Positions 10,985 to 12,609 of a stretch of 22,445 nucleotides of DNA are shown piece after piece. A program made the position numbers and the translations under genes. Origin of the DNA: Opitutales bacterium (GTDB lineage Bacteria > Verrucomicrobiota > Verrucomicrobiia > Opitutales > UBA9783); the NCBI GenBank assembly GCA_046881885.1, contig JBKSMP010000014.1:1-22445 (forward strand), read 5' to 3'. Each line of letters begins with the position of its first letter. The stretch's first letter is position 1. The notes under the pieces were generated by a model. That model was given only the letters and a program-made list of their open reading frames with translations. It did no database searches and was not told where the DNA came from.

Positions 10985-11566
10985 TCATTTTTCAGTTTGG
11001 AAAATTTTTGATATATATCGGGAAAGCTTTGGGTCTTTAACTTTGGTTATTAAGTCGTTTACTGTTTCATTGTCTATTGTCATAATTTTTGTTATTGTAA
11101 ATAATTGATTAACAAAATCTTTTACAGCTGTTTTGTCGTAGGTTGTATATTCTATTGAAGAGAAATATTCTTTGATTGTTGTTTCAAGAACCTCTTTAAA
11201 TGATTGTATGTCGTTTCTTTTTAAAAGCAGTGGTGTTCCGTTATTTGGAAAAGGTGGTAGACCTTGGGAGCTCTTAGGAGTGGAGGGCTTTCTGATATTT
11301 CTGCTGGGTTTGAGAAACTCAAGATAGGCTTGATGTATTAAGTTACCTCCTGTGATACCTGCTGTAAGCTTAGCCACAAAATCATCTATTGGGTTTGTTG
11401 TTTTTTTAACATCAGCTTGGTTTTTTTTGCTATCCCAAACGACTGAATAAGTTTCTTCAAATACAGAATTGTTTTCGATGAATTCAGAATTGTTTTCGGC
11501 AAAACTAGAATAATGATTGAAATTTAAAGCAATTACAGTTATTGGTAATAATTTAAGAATGTTCAT
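10985..11566 (-). CDS. Secreted hypothetical protein (paralogous 5' cassette copy B)
   Basis: 193 aa. Signal-peptide-like MNILKLLPITVIALNFNHYSSFA|ENN, a tandem ENNSEFI/ENNSVFE repeat, and a Pro/Ser/Lys-rich linker. No terminator before the next gene (61-nt gap). Confidence 0.7.
   Translation of the reverse strand: MNILKLLPITVIALNFNHYSSFAENNSEFIENNSVFEETYSVVWDSKKNQADVKKTTNPIDDFVAKLTAGITGGNLIHQAYLEFLKPSRNIRKPSTPKSSQGLPPFPNNGTPLLLKRNDIQSFKEVLETTIKEYFSSIEYTTYDKTAVKDFVNQLFTITKIMTIDNETVNDLITKVKDPKLSRYISKIFQTEK
11464..11498. repeat. Two copies of CAGAATTGTTTTCG at 21-bp spacing inside the 193-aa ORF
   Basis: Exact 14-mer at 11464-11477 and 11485-11498. It encodes the ENNSEFI/ENNSVFE heptad duplication. 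Confidence 0.85.
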
Positions 11567-11578
11567 ATCAATAAACGG

Positions 11579-11595
11579 AGCATATTTTGTGCCAA
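11579..11595 (-). promoter_or_regulatory. Candidate sigma-54 (RpoN) -24/-12 promoter, copy B
   Basis: The minus strand reads TTGGCACAAAATATGCTCC. GG (11593-11592) and GC (11581-11580) are separated by exactly 10 nt, as in the consensus TGGCACG-N4-TTGCW. 13 nt lie between the GC and the ATG at 11566. Confidence 0.55.
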
Positions 11596-11627
11596 GTTTG
11601 AAAATTTAAAAATGATTTTTGAAGTTT

Positions 11628-11669
11628 TTATAAAAACCTCTATCTGATGTAAAAACTAGGTAGAGGTTT
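11628..11669 (-). terminator. Hairpin with T-run downstream of the 281-aa ORF
   Basis: AAACCTCTA (11634-11642) pairs with TAGAGGTTT (11661-11669), with an 18-nt loop. On the minus strand the stem runs into TTTTTATAAAAAC. It lies 23 nt after the stop at 11692. The loop is long, so strength is uncertain. It could alternatively be a protein-binding inverted repeat. Confidence 0.45.
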
Positions 11670-11691
11670 CCTTTTGATCTCAAAATGATGT

Positions 11692-12537
11692 TTAATCAAT
11701 TAAATCCAATAAAGCTTTTAAGCCTATCTCCATAATCTTGGCTAAATGTGAACTTAGTAGGTCTATTTCAGCCGCTTTGTTTTGATAAAGAGGTTCATTG
11801 TGTAGTTTCATACGGCTTTCTAGTCTTTCAAGGAATTTTCTTTTTGCTTTTATTAGTAAAGCAACTACAAAACGATATATATCAATTTCCTTTTTCAGGT
11901 ATTTTTCAGGTTTTATTTTTGGGAATGCTTCTACAATTGAAGCTATGGCTTTTGATAATTTACTAAGATTACGGGATGGATACAGTAATGGCGATTCATC
12001 GGTAATGATGTTAATGCCACCTTCTATTATCTTGTATATTTTGTTTTCGTCTATGCTGCTAATGGTATTGAGCAATGGTTCTTTACATTCTGTAATGATT
12101 TCTGTTGCTTCTTTTGCGGCATTGTCAATTTGATGGATTAAGTCTTCTTTAATATTTGAAATCATGGTTGCCGCTTTTTCTATGTTTTCAGTCGACAAAA
12201 TTTTAGGAATTTCTTTTAATAATTCTTCTTTTGTTTCAAGCACTTCTTCTACGATTTCTTTTATGTTTTCAAAGGATAATACAGCTTCTATTAATTTAAC
12301 AAATTCATTCATTTGATTTTCAGAAAGAACTTTTCCGAATAAACTGTTAGGGTTTTTGATGGCATCTGTTAATTTATTAAGTTGTTGCGTGTAGTTTGTT
12401 TGATGATCTTCTTTGAAGGAATTATCCGTTTTAAATGATTGATCCGTATTTGAATTGAAAGTATCGGGTTCTGTTGCGTAACAAATGTAGGCCATGCCTA
12501 ATGCTAATCCAAGCGATAATAACTTAAAAGTTTTCAT
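11692..12537 (-). CDS. Secreted helical E/K/I-rich hypothetical protein (paralogous 5' cassette copy A)
   Basis: 281 aa. Signal-peptide-like MKTFKLLSLGLALGMAYICYA|TEP. The remainder looks predominantly helical by composition, and I recognise no domain. Confidence 0.7.
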   Translation of the reverse strand: MKTFKLLSLGLALGMAYICYATEPDTFNSNTDQSFKTDNSFKEDHQTNYTQQLNKLTDAIKNPNSLFGKVLSENQMNEFVKLIEAVLSFENIKEIVEEVLETKEELLKEIPKILSTENIEKAATMISNIKEDLIHQIDNAAKEATEIITECKEPLLNTISSIDENKIYKIIEGGINIITDESPLLYPSRNLSKLSKAIASIVEAFPKIKPEKYLKKEIDIYRFVVALLIKAKRKFLERLESRMKLHNEPLYQNKAAEIDLLSSHLAKIMEIGLKALLDLID

Positions 12538-12549
12538 ATTAATAAATAG

Positions 12550-12566
12550 AGCATGTTCTGTGCCAA
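12550..12566 (-). promoter_or_regulatory. Candidate sigma-54 (RpoN) -24/-12 promoter, copy A
   Basis: The minus strand reads TTGGCACAGAACATGCTCT. GG (12564-12563) and GC (12552-12551) are separated by exactly 10 nt. 13 nt lie between the GC and the ATG at 12537, identical to copy B. Confidence 0.55.
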
Positions 12567-12609
12567 GTTTGGAAAATAAAAATTTTTGTGAAATAAAGAT
12601 TATTTTGTG

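Follow-up and report, generated by a model that had tools for sequence, protein, structure and literature searches.

The enterobacterial promoter glnAp2 (TTGGCACAGATTTCGCT) is a canonical example of the sigma-54 class, which is recognized by its −24 and −12 elements, and canonical promoters of this class generally come with a 5' untranslated region (UTR), a ribosome-binding site and an upstream enhancer. Leaderless mRNAs are known from promoters of the sigma-70 family in which the −10 element lies about 6–7 nucleotides (nt) before the AUG, as in Actinobacteria and Deinococcus. In the vlp/vsp genes of Mycoplasma, a conserved 5' block of promoter and signal peptide is joined to divergent mature regions. 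Here we describe a locus that recalls each of these systems in part. It lies in a 22,445-nt stretch of DNA (hereafter the window; contig JBKSMP010000014.1 of the metagenome-assembled genome GCA_046881885.1) from an uncultured, low-GC (37%) Opitutales member of the Verrucomicrobiota, where two adjacent genes, for proteins of 281 and 193 amino acids (aa), begin with a repeated block that combines a sigma-54-like motif, the start codon and the first codons of a signal-peptide-like N terminus. In the best available reading, to which we assign a probability of about 0.6, putative sigma-54-dependent, near-leaderless promoters drive two exported proteins that are hypervariable between strains.

The sigma-54 consensus is TGGCAC-N5-TTGC (PMC3333780). 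RpoN, the sigma-54 protein, was present in 7/7 Verrucomicrobia genomes of a 2011 survey, which for the present host is indirect evidence only; that survey also describes enhancer-independent activators in Chlamydiae, Bacteroidetes and Epsilonproteobacteria (PMC3372290). Akkermansia and another verrucomicrobium are among the organisms in which Shine-Dalgarno (SD) sequences are scarce (PMC10783764), and 171 leaderless cases have been mapped in Sinorhizobium meliloti (PMC3616915). RpoN is largely missing from Actinobacteria and Deinococcus-Thermus. Because sigma-54 and widespread leaderless expression rarely co-occur in one phylum, the Verrucomicrobia would, if the present reading is confirmed, be a place to study their combination.

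A repeated 5' block with a promoter-like motif

The two genes lie on the minus strand, the 281-aa open reading frame (ORF) followed by the 193-aa ORF, and are divergent from a plus-strand mraZ-rsmH-ftsL-ftsI-murE-murF cluster (coordinates of all features are collected in Table 1). Around their start codons, positions 11548-11599 and 12519-12570 form the ungapped repeat that the original prediction had described, with 43/52 identical bases on our recount in place of its 42/52. A repeat search (family D1) lengthens the match to 66 nt, of which 82% are identical, and the chance of at least 54/66 matches at an AT-rich background is ~2e-15. We call the resulting blocks cassette A, at the 193-aa ORF, and cassette B, at the 281-aa ORF; on the coding strand they read aaacTTGGCACAaaatATGCTCcgtttattgatATG (MNILKLL) and aaacTTGGCACAgaacATGCTCtatttattaatATG (MKTFKLL), respectively.

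Both cassettes contain TTGGCACA-N4-ATGCTC. The GG and GC doublets are exactly 10 nt apart within TGGCAC-N5-TTGC-like elements (TGGCACAAAATATGCT, TGGCACAGAACATGCT), and 13 nt separate the C of GC from the A of the ATG, a geometry that had been proposed earlier and that we re-read from the sequence in both copies. Each copy matches 10 of the 11 specified positions of TGGCAC-N5-TTGC with exact spacing. The window contains two exact TGGCAY-N6-TGCT sites where shuffled sequence predicts 0.03, and both lie directly 5' of an ORF in the correct orientation; the copies are homologous and so count as one event rather than two. With one mismatch allowed, 2 sites are found against 1.28 expected, which alone is not significant. 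A canonical +1, 12 nt after the C of GC, would fall 2 nt before the ATG, the shortest workable distance, and at the 193-aa gene would give a transcript beginning 5'-AU-AUG.

We then compared nine upstream regions from three gene lineages, aligned from the ATG. Lineage A comprises the window, strain L002 and L019, the locus of a 193-aa-protein homologue (44% identical). Lineage B comprises the window, the strains L002 and L003 and the Genome Taxonomy Database (GTDB) species representative L013 (contig CAZIZB010000038.1), and lineage C comprises L033 and L034, the loci of distant 281-aa-protein homologues. The lineage A region of L002 differs from that of the window by one base only, and L019 reads aaatcaTTGGCACAtaatATGCTAtgtttaaaagcATG. 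In lineage B, L002 and L003, whose protein is 61% identical to the window protein, read TTGGCATAgaacATGCTTtgttcattagtATG and L013 reads TTGGCATAaaacATGCTCtattcattagtATG; the cassette itself is TTGGCATA-gaac-ATGCTT in L002 and L003 and TTGGCATA-aaac-ATGCTC in L013. Lineage C is represented by TTTGGCATAcgacCTGCTTtacatactattATG in L033, whose 32% identical homologue is encoded beside dnaE, and by TTTGGCACGcgacCTGCTTtacatactattATG in L034, which stands in the same relation.

Across this set the motif is conserved while its flanks drift. TTGGCA starts 29 nt before the ATG in 9/9 regions, TGCT is invariant 13 nt before the ATG, the GG–GC spacing and the distance to the start codon never change, and the start codon is ATG in all nine. 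The core (TTGGCA plus TGCT) is identical at 10/10 positions in every pair, against 22–31 of the 50 other upstream positions (44–62%), with per-pair Fisher p values from 0.015 to 0.0009. Variation falls at −21 (C/T), −20 (A/G), in the spacer and at −15 (A/C), and these are the positions that vary in known sigma-54 promoters. Lineage C sits next to dnaE and not mraZ, which shows the motif kept at a different chromosomal location. The stretch between GC and ATG differs by lineage (cgtttattgat, tgtttaaaagc, tacatactatt) and is constant in length but not in sequence, which points to a constraint linking promoter and start codon. The base 2 nt 5' of the ATG, where the canonical +1 would lie, is a purine in 7/9 of the homologous promoters.

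Two of the aligned loci need comment. The gene call in L019 begins at an earlier ATG inside the −12 element (L019:123-137; MFKSMNIC...), and comparison with the window protein points to the ATG at L019:135 as the true start; this aligned codon (MNICKLLPITVI) likewise stands 13 nt downstream of GC. In L013 the contig stops inside cassette B (L013:6466-6518), at the start of the 281-aa gene, as would be expected if strain variation here had broken the assembly.

Further copies were also sought beyond these relatives. A scan of 596 Gb of genomes with CTTGGCAYANNNNATGCTNNNTTNATT returned 15 matches where about 9 are expected by chance: 14 are in unrelated taxa, about the chance rate, and the fifteenth falls on the orthologue of this site in the species representative. 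No match was found in a metagenome collection scanned with a broader cassette pattern. Upstream of the motif, the A5/T5 strings that had been suggested as bending or IHF-type sites are present (ttcaaaaatcattttta at 11623-11607, cacaaaaattttta at 12590-12577), but the palindromes that they form are ~2.5 nt out of register between the copies, and such a role is unsupported.

Two strain-variable proteins behind a shared start

Both products are inferred to be exported, from their signal-peptide-like N termini. Neither matches Pfam or NCBIfam. The 281-aa product is identical to hypothetical protein ACLRFH_02050 [Opitutales bacterium], and one distant homologue was all that a full HMMER search against 1.84 billion representatives returned; for the 193-aa protein the only homologues are P0005, at 44% identity, and an incomplete one in L002. 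AlphaFold 2 models are poor (mean confidence, pLDDT, 44 for the 281-aa and 57 for the 193-aa protein), and a Protein Data Bank (PDB) fold search with the 193-aa model gave no match with E <= 0.001.

The strains differ sharply within these two genes. Between the window and L002, mraZ and rsmH are 97–98% identical in DNA and the intergenic region and cassette A are ~98% identical, whereas the two gene bodies are 55–80% identical with indels, and this divergence begins abruptly after the signal peptide. By the Nei-Gojobori method the 281-aa gene has a synonymous divergence (dS) of 0.41 and a nonsynonymous divergence (dN) of 0.25 between strains, compared with 0.09 and 0.006 for neighbouring mraZ, and dN/dS reaches about 1.2 in its last third. 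The gene bodies are old, divergent alleles in otherwise near-identical strains. A degraded IS30-family transposase occupies about 6200-7200 of the window on the minus strand (an HTH_38 match in ORF 6871-7110, DDE-like fragments and frame breaks), and a closely similar IS30 sequence in L003 (L003:1290-1639) directly follows the 281-aa homologue, at the place expected for the 193-aa gene.

A comparison of the two protein bodies gave no sign of paralogy: no homology is detectable by BLASTP (E = 0.15) or hhalign, in which the two small families align only at the signal peptide (probability 1.6%). In both proteins, however, [DN][ST]xF repeats follow closely on the signal peptide. The view that a similar 5' cassette fronts dissimilar bodies is borne out by these comparisons, with the correction that 281 and 193 aa are lengths of the precursors and not of the mature proteins. 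Over the 66-nt block, A and B agree at 54/66 positions within the window genome, compared with 46/66 for A versus L019 and 47/66 for B versus L033. They are more alike than either is to its homologue, which points to gene conversion or unusually strong constraint. A shared 5' module fits the earlier idea of a duplicated or recombined cassette, but its move onto unrelated bodies is not proven: an old whole-gene paralogy, its 5' end preserved by selection or gene conversion, explains the pattern just as well.

A probable leaderless context and the weighing of explanations

The distance between motif and start codon would leave little room for a leader, and the rest of the window suggests that this is ordinary here. 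We printed the 70 nt upstream of every gene and, for 22 genes, counted the TANNNT hexamers that lie within 60 nt of the start: 10 of 31 end 4–7 nt before the ATG (binomial p = 4e-5), and SD-like tetramers occur upstream of only 4/22 genes. Relatives are alike, with TATAAA-7-ATG in L033 (L033:6005) and TATAAT-6-ATG in L020 (L020:5653(-)). Because −10 hexamers lie near the ATG and SD sequences are rare, leaderless mRNAs look common in this Opitutales lineage, and, as far as sequence can tell, start-codon-flush promoters look like the norm in this organism. The cassette genes themselves start with AUG and have none of GGAG, GAGG, AGGA or AAGG within 20 nt upstream. The 2-nt leader that the original prediction had derived from the geometry is plausible in this setting, and the 13-nt GC–ATG distance is plausible for sigma-54 because it is equivalent to the −10-to-ATG geometry at other genes.

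The mechanism that we propose is as follows. Each minus-strand gene would be transcribed from its own sigma-54 (RpoN) promoter, TTGGCAC/T-N5-(A/C)TGCT, with initiation 12–14 nt after GC, that is, on the AUG or 1–2 nt before it. The mRNAs would be leaderless or nearly so (a predicted leader of 0–2 nt) and translated without an SD sequence. The genes would stay silent until the closed complex is remodelled by an AAA+ activator; since no shared upstream activator site is visible, this activator may act enhancer-independently, like some in Chlamydiae and Helicobacter. Selection, gene conversion or both would keep the block of promoter, start codon and signal peptide alike between the two genes. 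Since a terminator-like hairpin with a T-run separates the two genes, the 193-aa gene would require a promoter of its own; the hairpin has an 11-bp outer stem that is kept in L002 and L019, its fold does not differ significantly from shuffles (z = −1.6), and its long loop explains why a simple terminator scan did not call it.

Several observations count against this proposal. Profile scans found no rpoN and no sigma-54 activator gene in the 22-kb window, and no 9-mer outside AT-rich sequence is convincingly common to the A, B and C upstream regions. There are only two sites in 22 kb, and the GTDB representative gave no further extended-cassette copies, which is too few to demonstrate a regulon. 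Position −15 is A or C where the consensus has T, and the canonical start gives a 2-nt leader and not a true 5'-AUG. The nine sequences are also only three lineages from closely related low-GC organisms, and their conservation is partly shared ancestry.

The ten invariant bases match both sigma-54 elements at the exact 10-nt GG–GC spacing and the block varies only at positions that sigma-54 promoters tolerate, which is difficult to reconcile with the block being the operator or promoter of some other DNA-binding factor (a lineage-specific regulator or an alternative sigma) whose likeness to sigma-54 is coincidental. Such a factor would account for the conservation upstream of −24 (TTTTTAwwTTTyCAAAnTTGG), which goes beyond a minimal sigma-54 promoter, and it would require no rpoN in the host and suit an upstream region in which no enhancer-like site was found. 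Most regulator sites, however, are palindromes or direct repeats, and this site is neither; the expectation of 0.03 exact motifs per window likewise speaks against coincidence, and we regard another factor as unlikely. Transcription could also begin farther upstream, with the block acting as an RNA element in a 5' UTR. For the 281-aa gene, copy B alone is preceded by a 9/12 sigma-70-like site (TTTACC-16-AATAAT, 12626-12599); A and C have TATAAA-like hexamers upstream, and a constant spacing to the AUG is what a translational operator might need as well. Against these stand hexamer positions that are not conserved between lineages, a number of sigma-70-like sites in the region at shuffle expectation (8 found versus 7.5) and an RNAalifold consensus of −1.97 kcal/mol, whose only stem is an invariant GGCA/UGCU pairing of 4 bp, unsupported by covariation. 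An Rfam scan returned only a tRNA and nothing at the cassette block. An RNA motif that reproduced the sigma-54 consensus and its spacing would moreover be an unexplained coincidence, and we think this account very unlikely.

Less probable again is a sigma-70 promoter with TTGGCA as its −35 element and a weak −10 element 16 nt downstream. TTGGCA shares 5/6 positions with TTGACA, and a hexamer starting with TA or CA is found at 16-nt spacing in all copies: TATTGA, TATTGG, TAAAAG, TATTAA or CATTAG, and, in lineage C only, TACTAT, a respectable −10 element. We nonetheless agree with the earlier judgement that a sigma-70 reading does not fit. The candidate −10 lacks the final T in 7/9 sequences and, because it ends 1–2 nt before the ATG, initiation would lie ~5 nt within the ORF, at the cost of the conserved Met-Lys/Asn...Lys-Leu-Leu beginning of the signal peptide, with no alternative in-frame ATG nearby. 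Other sigma-70-like promoters here have their −10 element 4–7 nt before the ATG, an arrangement that is absent at the cassettes; a promoter scan found no TTGGCA-based sigma-70 site at either one, and the invariance of TGCT would be left unexplained. Lowest of all we place a neutral trace of recent tandem duplication or gene conversion, devoid of regulatory meaning. The greater likeness of A and B to each other (54/66) than to their own homologues does indicate exchange or concerted evolution within the genome; yet core and geometry survive in homologues with 32–44% protein identity, diverged flanks and, in one case, another locus, and the cassette is conserved between strains while the adjoining coding sequence diverges abruptly. 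Taken from the alignments, the −24/−12 reading of the motif fits better than any of these rivals, and it draws real support from the geometry kept across lineages and from the apparent preference of this genome for leaderless mRNAs.

Neighbouring features and comparison with described systems

The surroundings of the two genes look like a lineage-specific island (7977-12537, minus strand), because they are absent next to mraZ in L020 and L021, relatives with an 84% identical MraZ and 47% GC. Both genes and the motif are missing there, and a Zn-peptidase, a NUDIX protein and RluA stand beside mraZ instead. In the window the island encodes a leucine-rich-repeat protein, a tetratricopeptide-repeat (TPR)-like protein, a hydrophobic-hairpin protein, a DUF748-like protein and the two putative exported proteins. 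A 218-aa ORF (8810-9466, minus strand) matches the SycD/LcrH type III secretion (T3S) chaperone model TIGR02552 at E = 3.4e-8 and 33 bits, against a cutoff of 104.8 bits, and has a weak PDB match to PcrH (E = 0.4); TPR proteins cross-match easily. Just upstream of it, a 254-aa ORF (9476-10240, minus strand) carries a hydrophobic segment in two lobes that recalls chlamydial Inc proteins or translocators of T3S systems. We treat both as no more than leads. The divergent mraZ promoter region, with three G-rich boxes that are probably MraZ boxes (the operator), as in the Escherichia coli system, occupies about −70 to −105 upstream of promoter B; GTGGGA/GTGGGG boxes resembling those at mraZ adjoin TTGACA in L020.

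Table 1. Positions of the cassettes, genes and associated sequence features in the window
Feature	Position	Strand	Basis
Cassette A: promoter-like motif, ATG and first 7 codons of the 193-aa ORF	11546..11611	-	repeat search
Cassette B: equivalent block 5' of the 281-aa ORF	12517..12582	-	repeat search and alignment
Sigma-54-type −24/−12 element A, TTGGCACAAAATATGCT; GG 11593-11592, GC 11581-11580	11579..11595	-	exact pattern match
Sigma-54-type −24/−12 element B, TTGGCACAGAACATGCT; GG 12564-12563, GC 12552-12551	12550..12566	-	exact pattern match
Predicted transcription start zone of the 193-aa gene; canonical +1 = A at 11568	11566..11568	-	inferred from −12 element
Predicted transcription start zone of the 281-aa gene; canonical +1 = A at 12539	12537..12539	-	inferred from −12 element
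A/T-tract palindrome upstream of promoter A, ttcAAAAATcATTTTTa	11607..11623	-	direct reading
A/T-tract palindrome upstream of promoter B, cacAAAAATTTTTa	12577..12590	-	direct reading
193-aa ORF; Sec-like signal peptide (MNILKLLPITVIALNF...SFA, cut before EN); no family match	10985..11566	-	ORF and family scans
281-aa ORF; signal-peptide-like N terminus (MKTFKLLSLGLALGMAYICYA, cut before TE), all-helical body	11692..12537	-	ORF and family scans
Terminator-like hairpin and T-run between the 281-aa and 193-aa genes	11632..11671	-	RNA fold
TTGACT then GTGGGG / ATGGGG / ATGGAG at an exact 10-nt period; divergent mraZ promoter region	12610..12642	+	sequence
−10-like hexamer, no SD: TATAAT-7-ATG	ATG at 1772		
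−10-like hexamer, no SD: TACAGT-7-ATG	ATG at 2656		
−10-like hexamer 4–7 nt from ATG, no SD	start at 7110	-	
−10-like hexamer, no SD: TTGACG-17-TTATTT-7-ATG	ATG at 7904	-	
−10-like hexamer, no SD: TATAAT-4-ATG	ATG at 10923	-	
−10-like hexamer, no SD: GACAAT-7-ATG	ATG at 21777	-	

Other genes of the window are recorded for completeness. A 376-aa divergent protein of the Tubulin/FtsZ family (3957-5087, plus strand; Pfam E = 2e-18, GGTGSG motif) follows directly after enolase; its last 4 nt are shared with the beginning of the ORF for a 130-aa protein (5084-5476, plus strand) that carries a prepilin N-terminal methylation motif. A 547-aa ORF with a TTG start (74-1717, plus strand) has no Pfam or NCBIfam match. 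Outside this group of organisms, an Akkermansiaceae metagenome-assembled genome carries CTTGGCATAtcagATGCTTatttcatt (L017:1800-1826) about 40 nt before an ATG; this could be a further verrucomicrobial sigma-54 promoter or could have arisen by chance.

If the proposed promoters are real, they would represent an enhancer-gated, tightly 'off' promoter class that feeds straight into leaderless translation, and TTGGCAY-N5-NTGCT-N12-ATG would offer a handle for finding strain-variable exported proteins in uncultured Opitutales. A non-exhaustive literature search found no report that links sigma-54 promoters to leaderless mRNAs. We can also imagine, as a rather doubtful extension, that sigma-54 promoters fused to the AUG in host-associated Opitutales produce leaderless mRNAs from activator-gated closed complexes and that the module of promoter, AUG and signal peptide serves as a conserved landing pad for highly divergent exported-protein alleles exchanged between strains. 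Such a module may belong to an island with the SycD/LcrH-like chaperone and the Inc/translocator-like membrane protein.

Among described systems, the Mycoplasma vlp/vsp genes resemble this locus in having a conserved 5' block for expression and export in front of bodies that differ between paralogues and strains. They differ in that a multi-copy family has many paralogues per genome, whereas we find only two copies in the window, with no phase-variable tracts or invertible elements and with variation that is allelic between strains. The chlamydial sigma-54 system with its AtoC/NtrC-type activator, to which the original prediction had drawn a parallel, is likewise found in a host of the Planctomycetes-Verrucomicrobia-Chlamydiae (PVC) group and has putative exported or membrane targets. 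The present host is a member of the Opitutales, which reduces the parallel to an analogy within the PVC group, and no activator or rpoN gene is seen in the window. In Chlamydia pneumoniae, differential RNA sequencing mapped just five leaderless mRNAs and detected no sigma-54 promoter ahead of a protein-coding gene. Chlamydial activators have been reported to lack enhancer-binding domains (PMC3372290), which would fit the lack of a visible enhancer here.

The leaderless promoters of the sigma-70 family share with the cassettes a promoter fused to the start codon, which is always AUG, and the absence of an SD sequence; the difference is the sigma class. Like the canonical sigma-54 promoters, the cassettes have TTGGCAC(A/G) at −24, TGCT at −12 and an exact GG-N10-GC, and both copies lie just 5' of a gene in the same orientation. 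Unlike them, the promoter abuts the ATG at a conserved 13 nt, with no SD sequence, no shared enhancer found and A or C at −15. Overall, we regard the sigma-54 reading as a well-supported prediction within an ordinary promoter class, of which the motif is a variant with sigma-54-type elements locked to the start codon, rather than a new mechanism.

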